Positions 3,613 to 27,095 of a stretch of DNA of 64,000 nucleotides are shown piece after piece. Location: assembly GCA_016234925.1 (NCBI GenBank), contig JACRNI010000011.1, forward strand, positions 2,666 to 66,665, read 5' to 3'. The position numbers were made by a program, and so were the translations under genes. The stretch is from Deltaproteobacteria bacterium (GTDB lineage: Bacteria > Desulfobacterota > GWC2-55-46 > UBA9637 > GWC2-42-11). The notes beneath the pieces are model-generated. The model was not told where the DNA came from. It searched no databases and saw only the letters and a program-made list of their open reading frames with translations. Numbering within the stretch: the first letter of the stretch is position 1; every line of letters starts with the position of its first letter.

Positions 3613-4531
3613 TCAGATTGTTGTGTTCAACCCGTATCTCTTGCATGCAATATCCAAAACTGTATTTATAAGTTTATTATAATCCATGCCAGATGCCCTT
3701 GCTGCCTTTGGAAAACAGGAGTTATTCTTTGGGTCAGGGAGTATGCCCGGCAGGGGGTTGAGTTCCAGAATATAGGGGTTGCCGCTGGCATCCAGTCGGA
3801 CATCTATCCTGCACCAATCCTTTATATCCAGAACCTTAAATGTCTCTTTGCATACCGCCTCTATTTCATGCTTTAATGCCTTGTCTATTTTTGCCGGACA
3901 GACAAATATTTCCAGCGGATTATCAGGCGTGTCCCATATCCATTTTGCTTCATATGAATAGATAGGCTTGACACCTTCTGGCTTCATCTAAAACCCATTT
4001 GATTTTTTTATTCAGTTCTCCTTCATTATGAACAACAGAATCATTTCTTATGCCCTTGCTTGAGCCTTCATAAAGGGGTTTGACGATGAGAGGGAAATTG
4101 TAGCCCCCGACCTTTAGGTCGGGGGTGAGATGTGAGATGTGAGATGAAACTACAAAAAATCTTGCTGTGGGAATGCCGTAATATGACAGTATCTCTTTTG
4201 CCCTTGCCTTATCAAGGCATATGCCGAGTGTCAGAGGGTTAGAACCTGTGTATGGTATTTCAAGCATCTCTAATATCGCAGGAATATGCGATTCCCTGCT
4301 CCTGCCGTTAAGACCCTCCGCAATATTGAAAACAATATCAGGTTTTTCTATTTTAAGTTTTTGATACGCATCCTTGTCAGCCTCTATTAAAACAACTTCA
4401 TGTCTTTCTAAAATTGCTTTTTTTACAGCATCTATTGTCTCATCATCATCCCATTCAGCATAAAAATCCGGAGGGAGGTTCTCTGTTTCAATTTCTTTCT
4501 TTTTAATATTATATGTAATTGCGATTTTCAT
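3613..4531 (-). pseudogene. Second Ddl-like ATP-grasp ligase, split into two overlapping ORFs by a frameshift near 3950-3987. It also carries an in-frame hairpin-repeat insertion at 4103-4146.
   Basis: ORF 3950-4531 holds the N-terminal and central Ddl motifs (GSNPLTLGICLDKARAKEIL, PLIVKPLYEGSSKGI). ORF 3613-3987 holds the C-terminal ATP-grasp part (ILELNPLPGIL). Could be a real pseudogene or a sequencing frameshift. Confidence 0.5.
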
Positions 4532-13505: not shown

Positions 13506-13994
13506 TTATTCCTCAAACACCTCAATCTTGCAAGATGCCCTTTCAACCAGTTCATCAACTATTGATTTTGAAAAATATTTTAAAAATACTGAACGTTTTC
13601 TTTTTATTGCCACTGCTGTATCAATCTTGTATCTTTCAATCACATCAAGAGACTTTTCAACAAAATCGCCCTGTGTTGTAACTGCGTCAAAATCAACATT
13701 CTCTTCCATTGCCCTGATTTGAACCTTGCCCATCTCCTCATAGCCGCGCTGCCGATACTCCTTCATTATAGCCTCTGTGAGTTGGGTTGAAGGCTTGTCG
13801 CCGATAAAACCTATGTCTGTAAATTTATCAAAAATCTCCTGAGTAAGTTCAGTCTCAATTATATAAAGGACAACGAGTTTTGCCTTTTCCTTTTTTGCAA
13901 GATTAACAGCATATTCAATTGCATCCTGCGATGTCCTTGATGTTGACAAAATTAAAAGTATATTTTTCATATCTTTATCCCCAAAATAGGCCAA
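13506..13994 (-). CDS. Universal stress protein-like (adenine nucleotide alpha-hydrolase fold)
   Basis: 162 aa; alternating hydrophobic beta-strand pattern NILLILSTS...KLVVLYII typical of UspA, but weak. Confidence 0.45.
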   Translation of the reverse strand: MAYFGDKDMKNILLILSTSRTSQDAIEYAVNLAKKEKAKLVVLYIIETELTQEIFDKFTDIGFIGDKPSTQLTEAIMKEYRQRGYEEMGKVQIRAMEENVDFDAVTTQGDFVEKSLDVIERYKIDTAVAIKRKRSVFLKYFSKSIVDELVERASCKIEVFEE

Positions 13995-15394
13995 TAAACT
14001 TTAGCCATAATATTGAAAACTATCCATGCGGTTATCATCATCACAATCCCTGCCTTTGCCATATCTCTTGCTGTAATATATCCAGATGAAACTGCTATTG
14101 CATTTGCAGGCGTTGACATTGGAAAACAAAATGCCAGACCTGCCGGAATTGCTATGGCATATGTAATAATCTGCGGGTCAAGATTAAATCTGCCTGCCAT
14201 GCCTATGCTGACAGGAAGCAAAATTGCTATAACAGCGGCATTGCTCATCCCCTCTGTTAAAAGGATTGTTAAAAGGGAAAATACCGCTATAACAAGAACA
14301 GGGCTGTTTGCCCAATCACCAATCACTGTATTTGCAAGCCATGCTGCTGCGCCTGATTTTTCCATTGCCGCGCCTAACGTTATAGCGCCGCCATACATAA
14401 GTATTATGCCCCAGTTGACATATTCCTCTATGTCTTTCCATCGGACAAGTTTTAATACGAATAATGCAACAACTGCGATGATTGCAATATTTGCAATACC
14501 TGCCATTCTGCTAAACAAAAGCCATGAAGATATGGTTATGAGCATCAAAATGCCGACAGCATATTCAGTATAACCCATCTTGCCAAGCCCTTTTATCTTT
14601 CTTGCAAACACATCTTTTGCAAGATGTATGTCCTGTATATCCTGCGGAAAAAATCTTGTAAGGCCGATGTAGCCTATAAAAAGCAGAATTACTACTGTTG
14701 GAAACACAACCATTGTGTATTCAAAAAAACCAATGGTTATACCTGTCGCCTCCTTGAGCATGCCAGCAGCAAGCGGAACCCTTGCGCCGCCCAAAAATGT
14801 CGCAACACCTCCGATTACACAGCCCCATGCAAGCGCGAGAAAAAGCGACTTTGCATAGTTTGACTTACCGGGTTTCAGATTCAAGCCCTTTGCAATCTCA
14901 AGCACTATCGGGAAAAGCATTGCGGCAACTGCATGTTCTGACATAAAAAACGACAAAACCGCTGCAAGTAAAAATATTGACGCAAGAAGTCCCTTCGGCG
15001 TATTCCCAAACCTATCCATTATTAGAACTGCAATCCGGCTCGCCAATCCTGAATGCATAACAGCAGCAGAAAGTATGAATGCGCCGAGTATAAAAAATAC
15101 TGCCTCATTTCCAAAGAGCGCATATGCCGCCTTTTTATCCATAACACCCAATAAAGGCACCATCACAATCGCCATAAGGCTTGTAATTGCAAGAGGCAGG
15201 GCATCTGTTACCCAGAGTATAAGACATACAACAAAAAGCGCCAATGCCCTCTGCCCTTGAATTGTAAGCCCGGAAGGTGTAGGGATATTTATGAGATACC
15301 AGAATATAAAACCAAGGGCTAAAAAAAATATGGGTCTTAATGACCTTACTAAAACTATTACCCAAATTGGTCTTCTGTCTATGATTACCTTCAT
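13967..15394 (-). CDS. Anion permease of the ArsB/NhaD/DASS superfamily, putative sulfate/anion transporter
   Basis: 475 aa, about 12-14 predicted TM helices, internal duplicated halves; sulfate-assimilation context. Confidence 0.6.
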   Translation of the reverse strand: MKVIIDRRPIWVIVLVRSLRPIFFLALGFIFWYLINIPTPSGLTIQGQRALALFVVCLILWVTDALPLAITSLMAIVMVPLLGVMDKKAAYALFGNEAVFFILGAFILSAAVMHSGLASRIAVLIMDRFGNTPKGLLASIFLLAAVLSFFMSEHAVAAMLFPIVLEIAKGLNLKPGKSNYAKSLFLALAWGCVIGGVATFLGGARVPLAAGMLKEATGITIGFFEYTMVVFPTVVILLFIGYIGLTRFFPQDIQDIHLAKDVFARKIKGLGKMGYTEYAVGILMLITISSWLLFSRMAGIANIAIIAVVALFVLKLVRWKDIEEYVNWGIILMYGGAITLGAAMEKSGAAAWLANTVIGDWANSPVLVIAVFSLLTILLTEGMSNAAVIAILLPVSIGMAGRFNLDPQIITYAIAIPAGLAFCFPMSTPANAIAVSSGYITARDMAKAGIVMMITAWIVFNIMAKVYWPILGIKI

Positions 15395-15397
15395 AAA

Positions 15398-16621
15398 TTA
15401 TCCCTCACCTACCTCCCTGACCCTCAATTTCCTCCGCAAAGTAGAAAGCCCCCAAACTGTCTTCAGTCCAAGTTTTGACTTGTAAAACTTATGCATCATT
15501 GTTTTGAATCTTGACATATCCCCTGTAAAAAACATCGCCTCAATGGGCGTTGTTATAACGCTGATGTCTCTCACCCAGTTCATGTTTATCCTGTTCTTTT
15601 TAACAGCATGATATAGATGCTTGTAAACAGGGGCAATCTCATCAAGAGAAGGTATTTTATATGAAAGAAGTTTCACGCTGCTCACGGGTCTATAAATCGG
15701 AAGTATAGGCACAACGCCAAGGTCTGTAAGAAAATCTATCCCCCTCATTGTTGATTCTGCCGGCTCAAGCCCGACAATAAGATTAGATGCGACAGTGCCG
15801 TTTGGAAAAACCTTTGCAGCATATTTAAGCGCATTTATATATCTGTTTCTGCCAATCAGTTCATCCCTCCCCGGGCATATCTCCTTAAAAAGTTTTTCAT
15901 CAAATATCTCCATATTGTAAAGCACAGAATCAGCGCCAACCGCATATGTTTCGTCTATAAACTTGTTCTCCTTTGGCGGAAGCGCCTCAACAGCAACAAT
16001 GGTGTTAAAATGTTTCTTGATTGCCTTTATATAAGGCTTTAAAAATTCTATGCCGCCGTCAGGCGTTTCTGAAAAACCAATTGAAAGATAGACAATCTCT
16101 GCCTTGCCTTCTTTGTATGCAGCCTCAACAGTTTCAAGAACCTCCTCAACACTATAAACTACACCGCCCTTTGAATTAAAATTCCCTGCACAGTATCTGC
16201 ACTCTATATTCATGTTGAAAAACTCGCACCTTGTGTCAGGCGTGATTGCAACATAACTGCCGTGCATATTGCCGATTTTTGAAAGCGGAATGCCTGTCGT
16301 TGTTTTCAGTTTATAAAAATCAGGTTTTGGTATGATTTTGACCTTAACAGATTCCCCCTCTCTTTTTATGAATGCCTTTCCATCTTTCTGGATAAGTTCA
16401 TAAGGAGAATTCTTTGCAAAATCCTCAAGAAAAGGCGCATTTACCCATGTCTTATAAGGCAATATTATGTCAAGCCCGCCTGTAATGCCTGTATAGCCTG
16501 TAGAAAGGTCTATGCCCAGACTCTTAACAGCGTTTTCATTAAGCCTTATACCGCAAAGCATAAGGTCTATCTTTAAATAACCGGGGTTGTGGAGATATGT
16601 CTTTGTTTTTTTCATAAACAA
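15398..16621 (-). CDS. Radical-SAM-like TIM-barrel protein with non-canonical Cys triad (C-x8-C-x2-C), function unknown
   Basis: 407 aa; CEFFNMNIECRYCAG in place of CxxxCxxC, followed by a radical-SAM-like downstream pattern (GKAEIVYLSIGFSETPDGG ... ASNLIVGLEPAES). Start abuts the ThiF stop (16621/16622). Confidence 0.55.
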   Translation of the reverse strand: MFMKKTKTYLHNPGYLKIDLMLCGIRLNENAVKSLGIDLSTGYTGITGGLDIILPYKTWVNAPFLEDFAKNSPYELIQKDGKAFIKREGESVKVKIIPKPDFYKLKTTTGIPLSKIGNMHGSYVAITPDTRCEFFNMNIECRYCAGNFNSKGGVVYSVEEVLETVEAAYKEGKAEIVYLSIGFSETPDGGIEFLKPYIKAIKKHFNTIVAVEALPPKENKFIDETYAVGADSVLYNMEIFDEKLFKEICPGRDELIGRNRYINALKYAAKVFPNGTVASNLIVGLEPAESTMRGIDFLTDLGVVPILPIYRPVSSVKLLSYKIPSLDEIAPVYKHLYHAVKKNRINMNWVRDISVITTPIEAMFFTGDMSRFKTMMHKFYKSKLGLKTVWGLSTLRRKLRVREVGEG

Positions 16622-17453: not shown

Positions 17454-17546
17454 CAGTTAAGGAGTTTAAGAGTTGTGGAGTTGAGGGATTTTTTTATTTT
17501 TAAGTTTTTAACTCCTAAACTCTTGAACTCTTCAACTCTTAAACTG
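17454..17546. repeat. Word-hairpin element (ACAGTTAAGGAGTT words), 3' flank of JAMM gene
   Basis: AATACAGTTAAGGAGTTTAAGAGTTGTGGAGTTGAGGG-ATTTTTTTATTTTT-AACTCCTAAACTCTTGAACTCTTCAACTCTTAAACTGTTTCT. Confidence 0.55.
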
Positions 17547-17946
17547 TTTCTATTTCCTCTTCCCTAAACGGCTCTCCTTCATTTTCAAATGTCCATGACT
17601 TCACTGAAACATCTTTTCCATTTTGCACAGCGACAATCACATATGAATAAAACGGCCATGCCCTTTGCCTGTCAAAATCAGATGGTCTGTCAGGATGGTC
17701 AGGATGGGAATGAAAAAAACCAATCACCTCAAAACCATCTTTTTTCGCCTCTTTTTCAACCCTTAATAAATCCTTTGGGTTTATCTCATACCTGTCATTC
17801 GCCCTTTCTTTATTTATATTCTCCAGAGGATAAATCTTTGTAATCTTTTTGTCCTTGCCAACCAATGCGCCGCAGCCCTCGCAAGGGTAGGATTTTTTTG
17901 CATGGCTGATGATTTCGTTGTAAATTTTCTGTGATAGATGTAACAT
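17539..17946 (-). CDS. JAMM/MPN+ metalloprotease (Mec+/CysO-cleaving-type)
   Basis: 135 aa; JAMM motif FHSHPDHPDRPSDFD (HxHx7SxxD) and upstream EGCG. Confidence 0.8.
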   Translation of the reverse strand: MLHLSQKIYNEIISHAKKSYPCEGCGALVGKDKKITKIYPLENINKERANDRYEINPKDLLRVEKEAKKDGFEVIGFFHSHPDHPDRPSDFDRQRAWPFYSYVIVAVQNGKDVSVKSWTFENEGEPFREEEIETV

Positions 17947-18060: not shown

Positions 18061-19059
18061 CTACTCCCACAACACAGTTGACAGATACCTGTCCCCGCCG
18101 TCAGGGAATATAACAACAATTACACCCTCTTCTAATTCCTTTGCAGCCTGAAGCGCACCCCACATTGCAGCGCCTGACGACTGCCCCACAAAAAGCCCTT
18201 CCTCCATTGCAAGCCTCTTTGCCATATCATATGATTCCTCTGTTGGCGCAGAAATCTTTTTATCAAGTTTATCTTCATGATATATGCCCGGGACAATGGA
18301 TGAAGGCATATGTTTTAAACCCTCAAGCCCATGCAGCGCTGTTGCTGGCTCAACTGCAATGATCTGTATGTCCGGATTGAACTCCTTTAATCTCCTGCCT
18401 GTTCCCATTATTGTCCCGCCTGTTCCTATGCCTGCGACAAGATGTGTTATCCTGCCGTCTGTCTGCTCTATAATCTCCACCCCTGTTGTGTCGTAATGCG
18501 CCTGCGGATTTGATGGATTATTATACTGGTCAAGTTTGCAGTATTTATCAGGACTGTCAACATACATCTTCCATGCAAGCCTTATTGCGCCGTCAGAGCC
18601 TTCCATTGGATTTGAATAAACCGTGTTTGCGCCGAAAGCCTTTAAAATCTTTTTTCTTTCATTGCTGACATTTTGCGGAACAACAAGTTCAACCTGATAA
18701 CCCTTAACAGCGCCAATCCATGCATATGCAATGCCTGTGTTGCCGGATGTTGAGTCAAGTATAATCTTGTCCTTTGTAAGCCTTCCTGCCTCTTCTGCAT
18801 CCTTTATCATCTTTAGCGCTGCTCTATCTTTAACAGAGCCTCCCGGATTATAAGATTCAATCTTCGCATAAATCTCGACACCTTTGCTTAAACCCTGTGC
18901 AATCCTATTTATTTTAACCAGAGGGGTATTGCCTACAAGTTCCAAAACAGAGGTCTTTGGCAATTTATAACCCCAGTTTATGATTTGTTTTAGATTATTC
19001 ATATTAAACCTTTCCGAGTAATGTAGTATATATCTTTGCTCCAAAAATGGTAGCCGCAA
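18061..19059 (-). CDS. cysM: Cysteine synthase B-like PLP enzyme (CysM-type, likely sulfur-carrier dependent)
   Basis: 332 aa; PLP lysine region GSVKDRAAL, glycine loop [20 protein letters not shown] as called probably starts too far upstream. Confidence 0.8.
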   Translation of the reverse strand: MRLPFLEQRYILHYSERFNMNNLKQIINWGYKLPKTSVLELVGNTPLVKINRIAQGLSKGVEIYAKIESYNPGGSVKDRAALKMIKDAEEAGRLTKDKIILDSTSGNTGIAYAWIGAVKGYQVELVVPQNVSNERKKILKAFGANTVYSNPMEGSDGAIRLAWKMYVDSPDKYCKLDQYNNPSNPQAHYDTTGVEIIEQTDGRITHLVAGIGTGGTIMGTGRRLKEFNPDIQIIAVEPATALHGLEGLKHMPSSIVPGIYHEDKLDKKISAPTEESYDMAKRLAMEEGLFVGQSSGAAMWGALQAAKELEEGVIVVIFPDGGDRYLSTVLWE

Positions 19060-20227: not shown

Positions 20228-20464
20228 TTATTCTATTATATCAAGTTCAATAGGCTCTACCTTTACGCCTTTTTCAATAAAATAATTTATTGCCTTTTCT
20301 ATTTCCTGTGGTTCTCCGTCCAGTTCAAGCGCAACAAGACCAATGCTTTCGGAAACAGTCGCCTGTCTTATGTTTGTTACAACCTTATACAGTTTTCCAG
20401 CCTGATAAATAAGCGGCTCTTTTATCAATTCTTTTGGAAATGTAAGGTAAAATCTCTTTTTCAA
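20228..20464 (-). CDS. Small NIL-domain-like protein (MetO/MA1822-like ferredoxin-fold partner of sulfur-carrier pathways)
   Basis: 78 aa; pattern LTFP...EPLIYQ...LVALELDGEPQEIEKAINYFIEKGVKVEPI resembles NIL domains. Starts at a TTG overlapping the carrier stop (ATGTTTTGA). Confidence 0.4.
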   Translation of the reverse strand: MKKRFYLTFPKELIKEPLIYQAGKLYKVVTNIRQATVSESIGLVALELDGEPQEIEKAINYFIEKGVKVEPIELDIIE

Positions 20465-20742
20465 AACATCCCTCCGGCAATTGCAGGGATGATTGAAATC
20501 TCATCCCCATCCTTTAATTCTGTATCAATGCTGTTTTTAAACCTTATGTCCTCATCATTGACATAGATGTTCACAAAGCGTCTTATCTTGCCGTCATCTT
20601 CACAAATCCTTTCTTTAAGACCGGGGTATTGTTTTTCAATATCATTTATAAGGTCTTTAATATTTTTACCCCCTCCTTCTACTTCATCCTTGCCATTCGT
20701 AAGTTTCCTGAGCGGTGTTGGAATTCTGACTTTAATTGCCAT
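20461..20742 (-). CDS. ThiS/MoaD/CysO-like sulfur carrier with C-terminal GG followed by a 2-residue extension (…AIAGG-MF)
   Basis: 93 aa; beta-grasp-like pattern and terminal IIPAIAGGMF. The extension implies a need for proteolytic exposure of the GG, with the JAMM protease nearby. Confidence 0.65.
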   Translation of the reverse strand: MAIKVRIPTPLRKLTNGKDEVEGGGKNIKDLINDIEKQYPGLKERICEDDGKIRRFVNIYVNDEDIRFKNSIDTELKDGDEISIIPAIAGGMF

Positions 20743-20810: not shown

Positions 20811-21062
20811 TTACCGTTTTTCTATCTTCAACCTAAAATGATCGCCTTCTTTTTTGACCTCAACAATCTTATGTCCTTCTTCCTTGATGCTCTTTGGGAC
20901 ATTCTGAATCGGCTCGCCGTCATCTATAACAATCTCTAACACCTGACCTTTTTCCATCATCTCCAACTGCAATTTTGTTTTAACAAAATTTATAGGACAT
21001 AGAACATTTCTTAAATCAAGTGATTTGTCAGCCTTAATATCCATTTCATTTTGCTCCTGCAA
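20811..21062 (-). CDS. TusA/SirA-like sulfurtransferase
   Basis: 83 aa; LDLRNVLCPINF resembles the TusA CPxP motif region; overlaps sulfite reductase stop. Confidence 0.6.
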   Translation of the reverse strand: MQEQNEMDIKADKSLDLRNVLCPINFVKTKLQLEMMEKGQVLEIVIDDGEPIQNVPKSIKEEGHKIVEVKKEGDHFRLKIEKR

Positions 21063-22002
21063 CTATCTCGCCGCTCTTAAATGCGCCTGTCATAAACTTC
21101 ATATAACTTTCAACGCCAACCCTGTCAATGGTTGAACCAATCCTCTCGCCCCTTTTGCCATTCTCTTTATACCATTCAATGGTCTTTTGTATGACATCTG
21201 ACACCTTATCATCAGGAATAAATACCGCCGCCTCATTTGCCTCTCTCGGATGTCTGCCGTGCTTGCCGCCTACCCTTACAAAATGCCCGTATCTCTTTGC
21301 CTTCCATGACTCTGTCGGGCACGCCCTTATGCAGTCCCCGCAGTATATGCACTTTTCTGCATCATATATCGGTTTGCCTGTCTCCTGATGAGATACAATA
21401 GCGCCTTCTTTGCAAGCCCTTGAGCATATTGTGCATCCTGTGCATGTGTCCTCATCCCATATCGGCTCAACAACGCCCTGAAAACCCAAATCAGCCTCAC
21501 GGGTCCTTGCGCAGTCAATCGGACAGCCTGAAAATGACATCTTAAACTTATGATGCGTTGGAGTGCCGAAGAATTTTTCATCAACCATCTCTGCCATCTT
21601 CTGCGTATCTGTAAGACCATTTGGATTATATTCGCACCCGCCGCATGCAGTGGGCACCCTCACCCTTGGCCCGCATGACGCAACCTTGTGGTCAACCTTT
21701 GCCAAATCCGAGGTCAGATTATCAAAGTCCTTGTAATCAACATACAGAATCTCCAATGACTGCCTGAAACTTAAATGAACAACCCCTTTTTTGCTGTATT
21801 TATCAGCAATCTTCGCAAGTTCAATGAGTTTTTTTGTTGTGAGCCTTCCGCCGGGACAGCGCAGCCTTACTGTAAATAAATCCTTTTGCCTCTGCTTTAT
21901 AAAACCGCCGGACTTTAGCTCATTAAAGTCAACCTTAACCTCCTGTCCCTCTTTTTTAACAGGCACACGGGTTATCTTATCCTCTATAAAATGGTCAGCC
22001 AT
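21046..22002 (-). CDS. Small siroheme-[4Fe-4S] sulfite reductase with embedded 2x[4Fe-4S] ferredoxin domain (AsrC/assimilatory low-MW type)
   Basis: 318 aa; nitrite/sulfite reductase cysteines (ACGGCEYN, SFSGCPIDCA) plus ferredoxin motifs CTGCTICSRAC and CIYCGDCIRACP. Confidence 0.7.
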   Translation of the reverse strand: MADHFIEDKITRVPVKKEGQEVKVDFNELKSGGFIKQRQKDLFTVRLRCPGGRLTTKKLIELAKIADKYSKKGVVHLSFRQSLEILYVDYKDFDNLTSDLAKVDHKVASCGPRVRVPTACGGCEYNPNGLTDTQKMAEMVDEKFFGTPTHHKFKMSFSGCPIDCARTREADLGFQGVVEPIWDEDTCTGCTICSRACKEGAIVSHQETGKPIYDAEKCIYCGDCIRACPTESWKAKRYGHFVRVGGKHGRHPREANEAAVFIPDDKVSDVIQKTIEWYKENGKRGERIGSTIDRVGVESYMKFMTGAFKSGEIVAGAK

Positions 22003-22059: not shown

Positions 22060-23313
22060 TTATGCCTTCACAGCATAGACCTTGCCTTCTTTTGCCACAA
22101 GTTCATCAAATTCAGCAAGCCTTGCATTGATTGTTCTTGGCGCCCCAATCCTTCCAACAAGCGCCTCCTGTGTCTTTAACCCATTGCCTGTTATAGACAC
22201 AACTATTGACTCATCTTTTGGTATCCTTCCCTGCTCAATCAATTTCTTTGCAACGGCTAAAGTTACACCGCCTGCTGTTTCAGCGAATATACCTTCTGTC
22301 TCAGCCAGAAGTTTCATTGCATCAATAATCTCTTCATCAGACACATCCTCGCCCCATCCGTTGCTCTCCCTCATAACCTTTGCTGAATAAAACCCGTCCG
22401 CAGGGTTTCCTATTGCAAGGGACTTTGCAATGGTCTTTGGCTTTACAGGCTTTATAAGTTCTGTGCCTTCTTTAACCGCTGTGGTAATAGGCGAGCAGCC
22501 TGTTGCCTGCGCGCCGTATACCTTTGTATTTAAACTGTCAACAAGCCCGAGTTTATGAAACTCCTTGAATGACTTCCAGATTTTTGTGATAAGCGAACCC
22601 CCTGCCATAGGCACAACAATATGTTTTGGAAGTTTCCACCCTAACTGCTCTGCAATCTCGTAGCCAAACGCCTTTGACCCCTCTGCATAGTAAGGTCTTA
22701 TATTTATATTAACAAATGCCCATCCGTATTTGCCTGCAATCTCGCTGCACAAACGGTTGACCTCATCATAATTTCCCTTTATTGCAATGACATTTGTGCC
22801 GTAAACAAGCGTCCCCATTACCTTTGTCTGCTCAAGGTCATGCGGGATAAAAACATAACTTTCCATGCCGCAGGCAGCGGCATTTGCAGCAACTGAATTC
22901 GCAAGGTTTCCTGTTGACGCGCATGCAACGATCTTGAAATCAAACTCTATTGCCTTTGATATTGCGACAGCAACAACCCTGTCTTTGAAAGAAAGCGTCG
23001 GATAATTAACAGCATCATTTTTTAAATACAATTCTTGGACGCCCAAAACCTTTTCAAGATTCTTTGCCCTTACAAGCGGTGTAAACCCGACATCCAAGCC
23101 AACCTTCGGTTCGCCGTCGATTGGAAGGAGTTCCTTGTATCTCCACATATTCGGCGGTCTTTTTGATATGATGTCTCTTGTTAAAGATTTCTTGATTTTT
23201 TCATAATCATAATTGACCTCAAGGGGACCAAAGCAATACTCGCACACATGGAGAGCCTCTTTTGGATACTCCTTGCCGCATTCCCTGCATTTAAGACCTT
23301 TTACATAACTCAT
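22060..23313 (-). CDS. thrC: Threonine synthase family PLP enzyme. Annotated by homology as ThrC, but placed behind a SAM riboswitch in a sulfur operon, so it may be a MetM-like homocysteine synthase.
   Basis: 417 aa; N-terminal Zn-ribbon CRECG...CEYC, PLP lysine FKDR, long ThrC-type fold. Confidence 0.75.
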   Translation of the reverse strand: MSYVKGLKCRECGKEYPKEALHVCEYCFGPLEVNYDYEKIKKSLTRDIISKRPPNMWRYKELLPIDGEPKVGLDVGFTPLVRAKNLEKVLGVQELYLKNDAVNYPTLSFKDRVVAVAISKAIEFDFKIVACASTGNLANSVAANAAACGMESYVFIPHDLEQTKVMGTLVYGTNVIAIKGNYDEVNRLCSEIAGKYGWAFVNINIRPYYAEGSKAFGYEIAEQLGWKLPKHIVVPMAGGSLITKIWKSFKEFHKLGLVDSLNTKVYGAQATGCSPITTAVKEGTELIKPVKPKTIAKSLAIGNPADGFYSAKVMRESNGWGEDVSDEEIIDAMKLLAETEGIFAETAGGVTLAVAKKLIEQGRIPKDESIVVSITGNGLKTQEALVGRIGAPRTINARLAEFDELVAKEGKVYAVKA

Positions 23314-23343
23314 ATTTTCACCTCTGTAACGGCTTTGTAAAAA

Positions 23344-23395
23344 GTAGCCGCAACCTTTAGGTTGCGTTATTTCGCAGGCTAAAGCCTGCGGCTAC
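23344..23395. repeat. REP-like two-hairpin element in the 5' leader of the thrC-like gene
   Basis: GTAGCCGCAACCTTTAGGTTGCGTTATTTCGCAGGCTAAAGCCTGCGGCTAC. Confidence 0.65.
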
Positions 23396-23428
23396 CTACT
23401 TTGCCGTTTTTATAGACTTTTATTTGCA

Positions 23429-23470
23429 ATAAAAAAGCCCCTTCTTGAAATTAAGAAGAGGCTTTTATTT
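23429..23470 (-). terminator. Rho-independent terminator/attenuator (expression platform of the SAM riboswitch)
   Basis: Minus-strand AAAAGCCTCTTCTTAATTTCAAGAAGGGGCTTTTTT: GC-rich stem followed by a U-tract, between riboswitch and start codon. Confidence 0.65.
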
Positions 23471-23475
23471 CCTAA

Positions 23476-23596
23476 TCTTATCTTTCAAGGCTTAAACTAA
23501 AAAACCTTGATGGAGTTAGCACCTAGTCATCCTGCATTTGCAGGATCGGTTGCTGTGGTTTCACAGGGCCATTCCCTCCGCCACTCTGGATAAGCA
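23476..23596 (-). promoter_or_regulatory. SAM-I (S-box) riboswitch
   Basis: Minus-strand CUUAUCCAGAGUGGCGGAGGGAAUGGCCCUGUGAAACCACAGCAACC ... GGUGCUAACUCC ... GAAAGAUAAG matches the S-box consensus (CUUAUCaAGAG-GG-GGAGGGA-GGCCC-UGAA-CC-GCAACC, GGUGCcAAuuCC, P1 closing AGAUAAG). Confidence 0.85.
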
Positions 23597-23880: not shown

Positions 23881-25488
23881 ATGGAGATTAAAACAGATTT
23901 TCTAGTCATAGGCAGCGGTATTGCAGGACTGACCTTTGCATTAAAGGCTGCAAGATACGGAAGCGTCTCAATTGTCACAAAAAAAGAAAAGACGGAATCA
24001 GCAACCTTTTATGCGCAGGGAGGCATTGCATCTGTTTTAAGCAAAGAGGATACTTTTGAAAATCATATAAGAGACACTATAGAGGCTGGCTGCGGGCTGT
24101 GTCATCCTGATATTGTTGAACTTGTTGTAAAAGACGGCCCTGAAATGATACATGAATTGATGCAGTTCGGCGCAAGGTTCACAATGAGAACCAACCACGG
24201 CGAAACTGAACTTGACCTTGGCAAAGAAGGCGGACATTCAAAAAGAAGGATTGTCCATGCGGCAGATTTTACAGGCAGAGAAATAGAAGAGGCGCTGCTT
24301 CGGGCAGCAGATGCTGAAAAAAATATTGCCATCTATGAAAATCATATAGCAATAGACCTCATCACACATTCAAAGTTTATAGAAAAGATTGAAAAAGACA
24401 TATGCCTCGGCGCATATGTCCTTGATAAAAACACAGGCAAAATCCATACATTTTTGGCAAAGGCAGTAATCCTTGCAACAGGCGGCACTGGAAAGGTTTA
24501 TTTGTTCACAAGCAATCCTGATGTTGCAACAGGGGACGGAATTGCCATTGGCTACAGGGCAGGGGCGACGATTGCAAATATGGAGTTTATACAATTTCAT
24601 CCAACCTGTTTGTACCATTCAAAGGCAAAAAATTTCCTAATATCAGAGGCAGTGCGGGGCGAGGGCGGCATACTGCGGCTTAAAGACGGCGCAAGATTTA
24701 TGGAAAGATGCCACCCGATGAAAGAACTTGCGCCAAGGGATGTCGTCGCAAGGGCGATAGATTTTGAACTCAAAAAAAGCGGCGATGACTGTGTTTATCT
24801 TGATATAACCCACAAAGACCCGCAGTTTGTCAAAGACAGATTCCCCAATATCTATGAAAGATGCCTCTCATTCGGCTATGACATGACAAAAGAGCCGCTC
24901 CCCGTAGTGCCTGCCGCGCACTATGTATGCGGCGGCATACAAACCGACAGTTTCGGCGAGACAAGCATAAAAAGACTTTTTGCAATCGGCGAGGTCGCAT
25001 GCACAGGCCTGCACGGCGCAAACAGACTCGCATCAAATTCACTCCTTGAAGGCATGGTCTTTGCAAACAGGACATTTATAAAGGCAAAAGAAATAGCAAT
25101 GGATAAGACGATTGCAATCCCGAGAATACCTGAATGGCAGGCAGGCGGCGCAGTTGACAGCGATGAGGCTGTTGTGATTTCACAAAACTGGGATGAGATA
25201 AGGCGCACGATGTGGAATTATGTCAGCATAGTCCGTTCAAACAAAAGGCTTGAAAGGGCAAAACACAGGATAGACATGCTCCAGAAGGAGATAAATGACT
25301 ACTATTGGAATTTTGTTGTAACAAATAATCTCATCGAACTGCGAAACATTGCAACGGTTGCAGATTTAATAATAAGGTGCGCTATGAAAAGAAAAGAGAG
25401 CAGAGGACTGCACTATAATATTGACTACCCTGAAAAAGATGACAAGAACTGGAAGGTTGATACGATTATAAGGAAGGAGATAATATGA
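23881..25488 (+). CDS. nadB: L-aspartate oxidase
   Basis: 535 aa; FAD fingerprint DFLVIGSGIAGLTFAL and succinate-dehydrogenase/fumarate-reductase flavoprotein fold motifs (RLASNSLLEG). Confidence 0.9.
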   Translation: MEIKTDFLVIGSGIAGLTFALKAARYGSVSIVTKKEKTESATFYAQGGIASVLSKEDTFENHIRDTIEAGCGLCHPDIVELVVKDGPEMIHELMQFGARFTMRTNHGETELDLGKEGGHSKRRIVHAADFTGREIEEALLRAADAEKNIAIYENHIAIDLITHSKFIEKIEKDICLGAYVLDKNTGKIHTFLAKAVILATGGTGKVYLFTSNPDVATGDGIAIGYRAGATIANMEFIQFHPTCLYHSKAKNFLISEAVRGEGGILRLKDGARFMERCHPMKELAPRDVVARAIDFELKKSGDDCVYLDITHKDPQFVKDRFPNIYERCLSFGYDMTKEPLPVVPAAHYVCGGIQTDSFGETSIKRLFAIGEVACTGLHGANRLASNSLLEGMVFANRTFIKAKEIAMDKTIAIPRIPEWQAGGAVDSDEAVVISQNWDEIRRTMWNYVSIVRSNKRLERAKHRIDMLQKEINDYYWNFVVTNNLIELRNIATVADLIIRCAMKRKESRGLHYNIDYPEKDDKNWKVDTIIRKEII

Positions 25489-25680: not shown

Positions 25681-26094
25681 ATGAAGGCGCACACGGAATA
25701 TCTTTTTTTTGAAACAAAGAAGAAAAGGGAATACATAAATATCACAGATAAGATTGAAGGCATTGTAGAAAAAAGCAGGGTCAAAGAAGGCATGGTTTTG
25801 GTCTCTGCAATGCATATAACAGCAGGTATTTATGTAAATGACGCAGAATCAGGATTGATTCAAGACATAGACGAATGGCTTGAAAAACTTGCGCCTTTTA
25901 ATATCAATTATAGACATCACAGGACCGGCGAAACAAACGGCGATGCGCATCTAAAAAACCTGCTCATAGGACATGAGGTGATTATCCCTGTAACAAATGG
26001 AAAATTAGACTTTGGCCCATGGCAGCAGGTCTATTACGCAGAATTTGACGGACAGAGGAAAAAGAGGGTTGTAGTCAAGGTGATGGGGGGGTAA
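25681..26094 (+). CDS. YjbQ/UPF0047 family protein (secondary thiamine-phosphate synthase-like)
   Basis: 137 aa; conserved YjbQ pattern [50 protein letters not shown]. Confidence 0.8.
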
Positions 26095-26246: not shown

Positions 26247-27095
26247 TTATGACGCTATATATAATAACCCGCTTATTGCATCCCTTACCATCCCAATATC
26301 AACCCCTGTTCCAACGCAGTAACCCTGCGGCCTTTTATTAACTATGCCCAGCACCGGCAGTGGATATGCGTCCTGAATCCCGCTTGTCAAATCTCTCTCA
26401 CATGCAACAGCAACAATCACATCAGGTCTTTTTTCATAAACCTTTCTCCTTGCAATTGTGCCGCCTGTCGAGATGTATATGTCTATGCCGTATTCGTCCA
26501 TTATGCCAAGCAAATCCTTTATCTCGCACTTTCCGCATTCCTTGCAGTTCCTTATATCCTGCGTAACCTTGATTTTGCAGTCTACATACTGTATGCAGTG
26601 CGGCATGAGTATCATAATCTTTTCAGGTTTAACCAACTTGCCCATGCCTCTGACAAGTTGATTGTTGATTTCTATAAATGACTGCTCTATCTTGATTTTT
26701 GGTATCTTTAAGAGCCCGCCGAGCATTATCATCAAAGGCAGAAAGAATTTTATCAAGATGCCTCTGAATTTGTATGAATGAAATATGTCTTTGCCATTTG
26801 CTACGGCAATGGTTAATGCAAATGCGCCGACAACAAGAAATATGATTGCTGATAAAACAGCGATGCCGAAGATAAGCGGAAGTTTAGGATGTATATTGCC
26901 GAGCCCGACAGACGGGATATACCAGAATAAAAAACCGGCAACTAAAACTATGAAGGCGCAAAATGCAAGGAGACCGATGAATATCCCTTTTGCAGGACGA
27001 TAAGGGATGCTCTCTGCGCTGCCCGCCCACTCTGCCTCTTTGTCAATTAAGGATTTATTTTTTGCCATATTTAATACCACATTATCAGACGGCAA
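26247..27095 (-). CDS. DUF116-like membrane protein with C-terminal cysteine-rich domain
   Basis: 282 aa; N-terminal TM helices, then CIQYVDC ... CKECGKC ... VAVACE cysteine pattern. Confidence 0.45.
   Translation of the reverse strand: MPSDNVVLNMAKNKSLIDKEAEWAGSAESIPYRPAKGIFIGLLAFCAFIVLVAGFLFWYIPSVGLGNIHPKLPLIFGIAVLSAIIFLVVGAFALTIAVANGKDIFHSYKFRGILIKFFLPLMIMLGGLLKIPKIKIEQSFIEINNQLVRGMGKLVKPEKIMILMPHCIQYVDCKIKVTQDIRNCKECGKCEIKDLLGIMDEYGIDIYISTGGTIARRKVYEKRPDVIVAVACERDLTSGIQDAYPLPVLGIVNKRPQGYCVGTGVDIGMVRDAISGLLYIAS

Follow-up and report, generated by a model that had tools for sequence, protein, structure and literature searches.

Thiocarboxylate routes to sulfur amino acids (CysO/CysM/Mec, HcyS, MetM/MetO) have been described as a carrier, an E1 adenylyltransferase, a protease and a pyridoxal phosphate (PLP) enzyme. 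For Streptomyces albulus, a MetM/MetO/Mec/MoeZ route has been reported (Hasebe et al. 2024, as summarised in the GapMind 2026 preprint and PMC12172450), with an S-adenosylmethionine (SAM) riboswitch upstream of metM (PMC12172450). MetM-type enzymes are commonly misannotated as threonine synthase (GapMind 2026 preprint), and operons combining ThiS/MoaD, JAB, E1, SirA and sulfite reductase genes were described by Iyer et al. 2006, without NIL (PMC1779556). Here we analyse a pair of genes at 20228..20742 of a 64,000-nt stretch of a deltaproteobacterial contig (the window, meaning this whole stretch). The pair encodes a ubiquitin-like sulfur carrier, whose di-glycine (GG) is followed by a Met-Phe tail, and a stand-alone NIL-domain protein. 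All features of the carrier-NIL operon lie on the minus strand, in the co-directional order ThrC-like MetM, sulfite-reductase-like protein, TusA, carrier, NIL, CysK, CysM, JAMM, E1, radical SAM protein and Na/sulfate symporter.

The window operon resembles the MetM/MetO system in its SAM riboswitch, its ThrC-like enzyme, its ThiS-like carrier and its JAMM (Mec) and E1 (MoeZ) partners. It differs in that the window carrier bears a presumably cleavable tail and is accompanied by a conserved NIL protein, to which the carriers of many relatives are fused, in that the operon's E1 lacks the MoeZ rhodanese domain, and in that the operon adds sulfite reductase, TusA, CysM/CysK, radical SAM and sulfate-type transporter genes. 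In the HcyS/HcyD/HcyF/Sir/MetY system of W. succinogenes (2011 work attributed to Krishnamoorthy and Begley), the residue or residues after GG are reportedly removed by a JAMM protease and the product is said to be homocysteine. This system resembles the window operon in its presumed JAMM-trimmed carrier, its E1, sulfite reductase as sulfide source and a homocysteine product, whereas it relies on the O-acetylhomoserine sulfhydrylase MetY instead of a ThrC-like enzyme and is not known to have a NIL protein. The W. succinogenes homocysteine system is also cited in PMC5764234. The likeness to the M. tuberculosis CysO/CysM/Mec+ system (PDB 3DWG, 3DWM) lies in the CysO-like carrier domain and in the presence of CysM and JAMM in the same operon; CysO, in contrast, ends at GG without a tail, and that system lacks both NIL and a homocysteine branch.

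Operons of this type, carriers with a cleavable tail and the way in which JAMM and E1 serve the carrier were known already. What appears to be new is that NIL is a conserved partner, that it can be fused after GG or coupled through the Gly-Gly codons, and that it is occasionally joined to JAMM. No literature linking NIL to ThiS/MoaD carriers was found in searchable papers, where a 'NIL domain' is mentioned in only three distinct ones, with Hasebe et al. 2024, which may mention NIL, known via summaries. We consider it somewhat better than an even chance that the pair represents the carrier and a NIL accessory of a SAM-riboswitch-repressed thiocarboxylate operon for homocysteine and cysteine, in which NIL is most likely a sulfur-amino-acid-binding regulatory subunit. 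In many bacteria NIL is thus a fifth conserved component alongside those of these routes, present in Thermodesulfobacteriota/Deltaproteobacteria, Nitrospirota, a Limnocylindrales metagenome-assembled genome (MAG), Binatia and Ca. Acidulodesulfobacterium, and usually GG-fused or coupled. The pair and its junction are laid out as follows:

20461..20742, minus strand: sulfur carrier of the CysO/MetO-type, ubiquitin-like, 93 aa, pro-form ending ...SIIPAIAGGMF; ThiS PF02597
20228..20464, minus strand: stand-alone NIL protein, 78 aa, TTG start; PF09383
20461..20475, minus strand: coupling junction, sequence GGA GGG ATG TTT TGA

The first-pass annotation of this DNA had reported the carrier with its GG-MF tail and the TTG-started NIL open reading frame (ORF) with the right coordinates and overlap, giving no strand. 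The NIL start codon (TTG, 20464..20462) and the carrier stop codon (TGA, 20463..20461) share bases in a 4-nt overlap (TTGA). Both family assignments, for which that annotation had proposed hidden Markov model searches, pass their cut-offs. The carrier scores 67.2 bits against ThiS PF02597 (cut-off 22.5; E=1.9e-18, Pfam), and the NIL ORF scores 52.4 bits against PF09383 (cut-off 24; E=4.8e-14), with residues 4-70 matching profile positions 2-72 of 73 as the sole Pfam match of the 78-aa protein. The carrier also passes TIGR01687 (63.6 bits vs 49.5), and its NCBIfam matches are named moaD_arch and SAMP1. Its earlier description as CysO-like is borne out by a modelled fusion homologue (63-67% identical to the window carrier/NIL), whose carrier domain shares 52% identity with CysO of M. 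tuberculosis at a root-mean-square deviation (rmsd) of 1.2 A (3dwg_C); the fusion-protein profile matches the same chain at E=4.5e-28.

To place the pair among its relatives, we used a one-genome-per-species scan that gave 155 loci, of which 80 were retained and searched by tblastn with eleven window proteins. The first-pass annotation had staked its reading on a conserved di-glycine and on homologues of the small ORF. PAIAGG does not vary among the carriers of about 74 related loci or among 61 fusion proteins, but in the window carrier it is followed by Met-Phe. For the NIL protein 515 homologues were found; the best 120 include 119 with a length of exactly 78 aa (identity 73-100%). The order MetM-Sir-TusA-carrier-NIL-CysM-JAMM-E1-rSAM-transporter (Sir, sulfite-reductase-like protein; rSAM, radical SAM protein) held in most of the 80 species-level genomes. 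The counts over the 80 loci, many of whose contigs are short, are 77 for the carrier, 67 each for MetM and CysM, 59 each for E1 and TusA, 56 for Sir, 52 for JAMM, 48 for rSAM and 44 for the transporter. The carrier-NIL combination had been called unusual, a description that does not hold: the pair is conserved across at least 80 species-level genomes and corresponds, in split form, to a fusion that is very common.

Carrier and NIL share a single stop-free ORF in five of the 80 genomes (L042, L048, L060, L062, L065; ...PAIAGG-AIE-KKRVYLT...). A search with one fused ORF returned 4,875 matches, and the best 120 of these 4,875 all join ThiS to NIL in 167-189 aa at 58-100% identity. Four fusion matches carry the source names Deltaproteobacteria, Nitrospirae, Limnocylindrales MAG and Ca. 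Acidulodesulfobacterium, the Limnocylindrales MAG belonging to Chloroflexota. The fusions keep GG invariant and have a Lys/Arg-rich linker of 4-10 aa between carrier and NIL. From the GG codons to the Val/Phe-Tyr codons there are 18 nt in the fused form and 17 nt at the split junction, so that one single-base indel interconverts the fused and split forms; the stop of the split form falls at the linker Glu codon (GAA) of the fused form, one base out of register. Judged from these sequences, the window pair is the split form of a widespread carrier-GG-short basic linker-NIL protein.

In the fused form, NIL would have to be cut off after GG before the carrier could be adenylated, which would give one NIL per carrier, and this 1:1 ratio is approximated by the coupling seen in the window. 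MoaD-MoaE (DRJAMM) and the eukaryotic ubiquitin-ribosomal-protein precursors are alike in that a folded partner after GG is freed by a protease, also 1:1; in MoaD-MoaE, however, the partner is a subunit of the carrier-using enzyme, whereas here it is a NIL domain. Another MoaD-MoaE fusion is MoaX in M. tuberculosis. Cleavage of MoaD-MoaE by DRJAMM is described in PMC8832034.

The fusions stand in several contexts, namely MetM-[carrier-NIL]-ThiF-TusA-CysM-JAB, MetM-[carrier-NIL] alone, MetM-[carrier-NIL]-ATP sulfurylase, MetM-CysM-[carrier-NIL]-ThiF and PALP-[carrier-NIL]-rhodanese-ThiF-rhodanese-JAB. In L081-L084 and L086 the gene immediately before the fusion encodes a MetM-like PLP enzyme (414-429 aa). 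L087 has such a gene two genes before the fusion, and L088 has a shorter PLP gene (356 aa) in its place. Fusions of about 171 aa are named 'MoaD family protein' or 'molybdopterin synthase sulfur carrier subunit' in public databases, and homologues of the NIL protein (P0001, P0007, P0010 and others) are named 'FeS-binding protein', 'NIL domain-containing protein' or 'Methionine import ATP-binding protein MetN'. These names appear to have been carried over from partial domain matches. For annotation, the 'MoaD family proteins' of about 171 aa would be better regarded as precursors that probably require cleavage.

Further architectures emerged from a NIL profile search of 1.84 billion representatives, which gave 1,095 matches, 311 of them at E<=1e-10. 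Besides stand-alone NIL and carrier-NIL, we saw NIL with a basic N-terminal extension, tandem NIL-NIL and JAMM-NIL. A tandem NIL-NIL protein of 164 aa (P0361; L093 1213-1707) comes after CysM and TusA and before an Rrf2 regulator, and several further representatives of 164-185 aa show two NIL stretches; the tandem form fits a dimeric working unit. NIL is C-terminal in every fusion with another domain, as with appended ACT-type regulatory domains, for which such placement is typical. The JAMM-NIL fusions, P0418 (237 aa; L090 5692-6405) and P0429 (249 aa; L091 113-862, directly after CysM), come from independent data sets and are rare (2 of 150 representatives).

The JAMM-NIL proteins bear on the main rival to a regulatory subunit, namely that NIL, instead of sensing a metabolite, is an adaptor or substrate receptor for JAMM. 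It would attach to JAMM, or to the residues that directly follow the scissile GG bond, and present the carrier precursor and the carrier-amino-acid adduct. We regard such a role as possible but doubtful. At least 120 protein clusters have NIL fused immediately behind the presumed site of cleavage, and NIL sits at the C-terminus of JAMM in two independent representatives, although the latter are only 2 of 150 and one of them comes from a long-read contig. The invariant, predicted-disordered C-terminal tail of NIL (described below) suggests a docking motif, whereas the nearest structural relatives of NIL are all ligand-binding regulatory domains. NIL does occur together with carrier and JAMM where MetM is not seen (L090, L091); on the other hand, the Nonomuraea locus considered below is without NIL. 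It also counts against an adaptor that Mec-type JAMM proteases in M. tuberculosis and W. succinogenes reportedly act on CysO adducts or carrier precursors without NIL.

Some other proteins were set aside. A MetM-NIL fusion (P0464) is an artefact: it stems from a long-read contig of 2x coverage whose MetM gene is itself frameshifted. P0366 is chimeric in appearance. PDB 1v8c, a 168-aa 'MoaD related protein' of T. thermophilus, was considered as a solved carrier-NIL fusion: its MoaD-like domain ends ...PPVAGG and is followed by a C-terminal domain. The NIL profile does not match 1v8c and the NIL-only model does not retrieve it; its C-terminal domain is probably unrelated to NIL, and 1v8c seems to represent a different type of carrier that continues into a further domain after GG.

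Translational coupling from carrier to NIL, which the first-pass annotation had proposed, is supported by comparison of the loci, because the overlap is conserved and the choice of Gly-Gly codons follows the overlap. The 4-nt NTGA overlap is found in 43 of about 70 loci, and the NIL start codon is TTG in 50 loci, GTG in 6 and ATG in 4. Carrier tails are 0-6 aa long in most relatives, with two longer outliers. Among the 43 overlapping loci, 36 have a 2-aa tail and 5 a 3-aa tail; of the 11 loci with spaced genes, 7 have a tail of 0-1 aa. Three carriers stop exactly at GG. Tails of 0-1 aa are confined to non-overlapping genes (p=2e-6), and GGAGGN occurs at the Gly-Gly codons in 34/43 overlapping loci, 2/11 spaced loci (p=3e-4) and 0/11 loci with an intervening gene (p=8e-8 against the pooled non-overlapping loci, 2/22; Fisher), but it tells against taking these figures at face value that the loci are related to one another, so that the Fisher tests overstate independence and the significance is at most what the p-values suggest. 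Within the window, GGAGG sits 6 nt ahead of the NIL TTG. The last base of the final tail codon is the T (or G) of the NIL start codon, which is why the final residue of the tails is F, S, A, C, L, I, N or D.

We conclude that the di-glycine codons (GGAGG) probably double as the Shine-Dalgarno sequence of the NIL gene, with the two tail codons as spacer, and that the weak TTG start of NIL would rely on ribosomes terminating at the carrier stop. We further conclude that the MF tail is probably a by-product of the gene overlap and no functional peptide, tolerated because the JAMM protease is present anyway; for annotation purposes, such a carrier tail would be the scar of a gene overlap. Proteolytic exposure of GG by JAMM would be the natural reading, because GG is conserved, the tail is variable and the JAMM metal-site motif of the operon is intact. 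Read from the translation, this motif is E..HxHx7Sx2D (E23...H-S-H-PDHPDRP-S-DF-D, i.e. E...HSHPDHPDRPSDFD). The cleavage of MoaD-MoaE by DRJAMM is a published precedent (PMC8832034). HcyS-Ala/HcyD and QbsE-CF/QbsD are said to be further precedents for JAMM-type removal of residues after a carrier GG. The JAMM gene lies where the annotation had it, third after NIL, past CysK and CysM. Among the relatives, one carrier (L008 2578-2958) has a Gly-rich repetitive extension past GG (AGGAGGPGGAGG...), still closing in a TTGA overlap with NIL, and the carriers of L018 and L071 are frameshifted or extended in appearance.

To gain insight into what NIL might bind, we modelled the window protein with AlphaFold2 (AF2). 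The model (predicted local distance difference test, pLDDT, 93.7; predicted template modelling score, pTM, 0.81) has the order beta-alpha-beta-beta-alpha-beta. The top 11 PDB matches in a Foldseek search are all MetN-type C2/NIL domains, and PII, ACT and NikR regulatory domains come after them. Against E. coli MetN C2 (3tui_C; also the selenomethionine-bound 3TUZ), the template modelling score (TM-score) is 0.85 and the rmsd 0.9-1.0 A, and within the PDB the NIL sequence profile matches only MetN C2 domains. N31 and A35, invariant in family alignments A1 and A3, are aligned to MetN N295 and A299. The MetN residue N295 forms a hydrogen bond with methionine across the C2 dimer, and binding is lost in N295A; A299 belongs to the register-shifting strand (PMC6233128). 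The likeness to MetN C2 thus covers the Pfam family, the fold, the methionine-binding Asn and the dimer-strand Ala. MetN C2 differs in being part of an ATP-binding cassette (ABC) ATPase, whereas the window NIL is stand-alone with relatives fused to carrier or JAMM, and the window family has an Arg in N-I-R and a family-specific acidic tail. The last eight residues of that tail, PIELDIIE (tail VEPIELDIIE), are almost invariant and predicted to be disordered; they are a possible docking motif.

Cys and His are both absent from the 78-aa NIL protein, and family alignment A1 has no conserved Cys column. With neither residue available, NIL, going by its composition, cannot be an Fe-S protein or a persulfide carrier, and the public name 'FeS-binding protein' is wrong. 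The methanogen/Desulfovibrio pathway of homocysteine synthesis does use a NIL-ferredoxin, MA1822, together with the DUF39 protein MA1821 (PMC5764234), and one could imagine that the window NIL is likewise an electron-transfer protein, bringing electrons to sulfite reductase. The database names of the homologues point the same way, as does the joining of NIL and ferredoxin domains within a homocysteine pathway (PMC5764234), but that name was apparently taken over from NIL-ferredoxin proteins, and a protein that lacks Cys and His and consists of a NIL domain only makes this role vanishingly improbable. MA1822 is alike in that a NIL domain is attached to a non-canonical homocysteine pathway; the window NIL, in contrast, has no ferredoxin domain, and its chemistry is that of a thiocarboxylate carrier. 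No DUF39/COG1900 match was found among the 10 operon proteins scanned, the eleventh being the Na/sulfate symporter.

The first-pass annotation had named MA1822 and MetO as NIL proteins in unusual homocysteine routes. This is correct for MA1822 (PMC5764234), but MetO is a ThiS-like carrier (GapMind 2026 preprint). We rejected MetO as a NIL protein: secondary sources name it a sulfur carrier, and the actinomycete locus has a 91-aa carrier and no NIL. That annotation had missed the two features that define the pathway, namely the SAM riboswitch and the ThrC-like MetM gene.

In Nonomuraea gerenzanensis, a SAM riboswitch is followed by a MetM gene, whose product is 53% identical to the window MetM-like protein, and then by a 91-aa carrier that ends ...PAVAGG*, without tail and without NIL. 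No close NIL homologue was found at E<=1e-3 in the 11.85-Mb record of this species. Because this riboswitch-MetM-carrier locus does without NIL, NIL would seem dispensable for the core chemistry, and it is an accessory, most likely a regulatory one.

Taking NIL as a regulatory subunit, the operon may be pictured as follows. High SAM would end transcription in the leader. The carrier would be made as a pro-form (...AGG-Met-Phe), its tail would be removed by JAMM, and E1 would adenylate the exposed Gly, which sulfur from the sulfite-reductase-like protein and TusA would turn into a thiocarboxylate. The ThrC-like MetM would pass this sulfur to O-phosphohomoserine and CysM would pass it to O-phosphoserine, after which JAMM would release the amino acid and regenerate the carrier. 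Ribosomes fresh from terminating on the carrier gene would go on to translate NIL; the MetN-C2-like dimer of NIL may bind methionine, homocysteine or cysteine and may regulate the carrier, JAMM or PLP-enzyme steps, adding protein-level end-product feedback to the riboswitch. In this scheme the reaction order, the trimming by JAMM and the activity of MetM derive from family assignments and published pathways.

The individual parts of this picture differ in how far we trust them. We give somewhat less than an even chance to the tentative proposal of NIL as a dimeric regulatory subunit which binds a sulfur amino acid and acts on the carrier, JAMM or PLP-enzyme steps. The more specific idea, that NIL is an end-product sensor (for methionine, homocysteine or cysteine) which, fused or coupled to the carrier, gates JAMM-dependent carrier maturation and recycling, is rather unlikely as it stands. 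If gating were true, the processing of a prokaryotic ubiquitin-fold precursor would be a metabolic control point layered on the SAM riboswitch. If NIL is a sensor or a protease adaptor, there would be an extra regulatory layer in sulfur amino-acid synthesis and a NIL function outside ABC transporters, which might help explain the role of methanogen MA1822.

Several observations weigh against a methionine-sensing subunit tied to the carrier. The family has an Arg (N-I-R) at the position of a MetN Ile/Leu, and the ligand of NIL may therefore differ; the comparison with MetN is limited to one contact residue (Asn) and the strand Ala. Distant NILs lie in CysM/TusA clusters in whose short contigs MetM is not seen (L090, L091, L093), so the ligand need not be methionine or homocysteine. 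In Binatia and 'Myxococcales' genomes, where the order is E1'-MetM-carrier-CysM-NIL-rSAM-transporter, NIL comes after CysM and not after the carrier, and coupling to the carrier is therefore not obligatory. The AF2 model of a natural carrier-NIL fusion predicts both domains confidently but has no confident interface (pTM 0.55, pLDDT 89.8).

The last two observations would also suit the view that overlap and fusion merely secure co-expression, that NIL is unrelated or trivial (for example a methionine buffer), and that tail and overlap are meaningless. We consider this improbable. NIL is as conserved as the core enzymes, with 72-78% identity vs 45-57% for JAMM; NIL stays in the cluster across several phyla, and Gly-Gly codon usage tracks the overlap.

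The remaining features of the operon, all on the minus strand and listed from its head, are:

23475..23596, minus strand: SAM-I riboswitch aptamer at the operon head; Rfam RF00162, 80.1 bits vs gathering score 44.4, E=3e-17
23429..23465, minus strand: expression platform of the riboswitch, with a 13-bp terminator hairpin and then a U tract; read from sequence and folded
22060..23313, minus strand: ThrC-family PLP enzyme, assigned as a MetM-type homocysteine synthase, 417 aa; PALP 248 bits and thrC models
21046..22002, minus strand: small sulfite-reductase-like protein with two 4Fe-4S motifs; NIR_SIR 95 bits, NIR_SIR_ferr 62 bits, Fer4
20811..21062, minus strand: TusA/SirA-type sulfur relay protein; Pfam TusA 76.5 bits
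19073..20011, minus strand: CysK-type cysteine synthase; TIGR01139 cysK 445 bits
18061..19059, minus strand: CysM-type cysteine synthase; TIGR01138 cysM 390 bits, TIGR01136 cysKM 362
17539..17946, minus strand: JAMM/Mec-type metalloprotease; Prok-JAB 93 bits
16622..17443, minus strand: MoeB/ThiF-type E1 adenylyltransferase; ThiF 274 bits, PRK05690 MoeB 326 vs cut-off 266
15398..16621, minus strand: variant radical SAM protein, related to the MSMEG_0568 family; NF045502, 207.8 bits vs cut-off 125
13967..15394, minus strand: Na+/sulfate-symporter-family transporter, the final cluster gene; PF00939, 207.7 bits

A consensus terminator scan missed the riboswitch terminator, and the hairpin was read and folded directly. 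We scanned 14 related loci for SAM riboswitches, spanning split, fused, Binatia-type and actinomycete clusters, and nine of them have one upstream of the MetM gene (L002, L009, L028, L048, L064, L081, L086, L087, L089). In L087 a tandem pair of SAM riboswitch aptamers (3779-3881 and 4014-4118) lies upstream of MetM-CysM-[carrier-NIL]-ThiF. The window leader holds a second long, near-perfect hairpin followed by UUUUU (23330-23408, minus strand), between the riboswitch terminator and the MetM start, and the leader segment overall folds at -62 kcal/mol (z=-7.45). This second hairpin matched no Rfam family and could be a further terminator or attenuator, or a repeat element.

The MetM-like enzyme of the window also passes NCBI threonine-synthase models. 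Given the assignment above, it would use O-phosphohomoserine and the carrier thiocarboxylate as a MetM-type homocysteine synthase, and an annotation as 'threonine synthase' here probably stands for homocysteine synthase. The sulfite-reductase-like protein is presumed to be the sulfide source. The operon E1 has no rhodanese domain and TusA is present instead, which fits the pattern described in PMC1779556. CysM, which is presumed to take the carrier thiocarboxylate as substrate, falls just below the TIGR01138 cut-off (390 vs 394.2 bits) and passes the cysKM subfamily TIGR01136 (362 vs 344). JAMM is presumed both to trim the carrier tail and to free the amino-acid product.

The names and partners of the carrier also invite a quite different reading, in which the cluster is a SAMP/TtuB-type ubiquitin-like conjugation system that attaches the carrier to proteins, with NIL as target or regulator. 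The carrier does pass NCBIfam SAMP1 (63.9 bits vs 60), and E1 and JAMM resemble UbaA and desampylase, but E1 falls short of the UbaA cut-off (345.7 vs 450) and JAMM of that for desampylase (96 vs 130). The genes are part of a SAM-riboswitch operon filled with sulfur-assimilation genes and Cys/Hcy (cysteine/homocysteine) synthases, and the likeness of the carrier to CysO (52% identity for the carrier domain of the modelled fusion homologue) speaks the same way. We regard conjugation as very improbable.

Some minor features of the cluster deserve mention. An extra CysK between NIL and CysM is found in only 3/80 related loci. The CysM ORF as listed (18061-19059, minus strand) has a TTG start and about 19 extra N-terminal residues; the true start is probably an internal Met (MNNLKQ...), since profile matches begin at residue 36-39. 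In Binatia-type clusters the radical SAM and transporter genes, which are conserved in the cluster, come directly after NIL. Beyond the operon head lie an FAD (flavin adenine dinucleotide) flavoprotein of the succinate dehydrogenase/L-aspartate oxidase type (23881-25488, plus strand), a UPF0047 protein (25681-26094, plus strand) and a DUF116 membrane protein (26247-27095, minus strand), divergent neighbours that seem unrelated to the operon.

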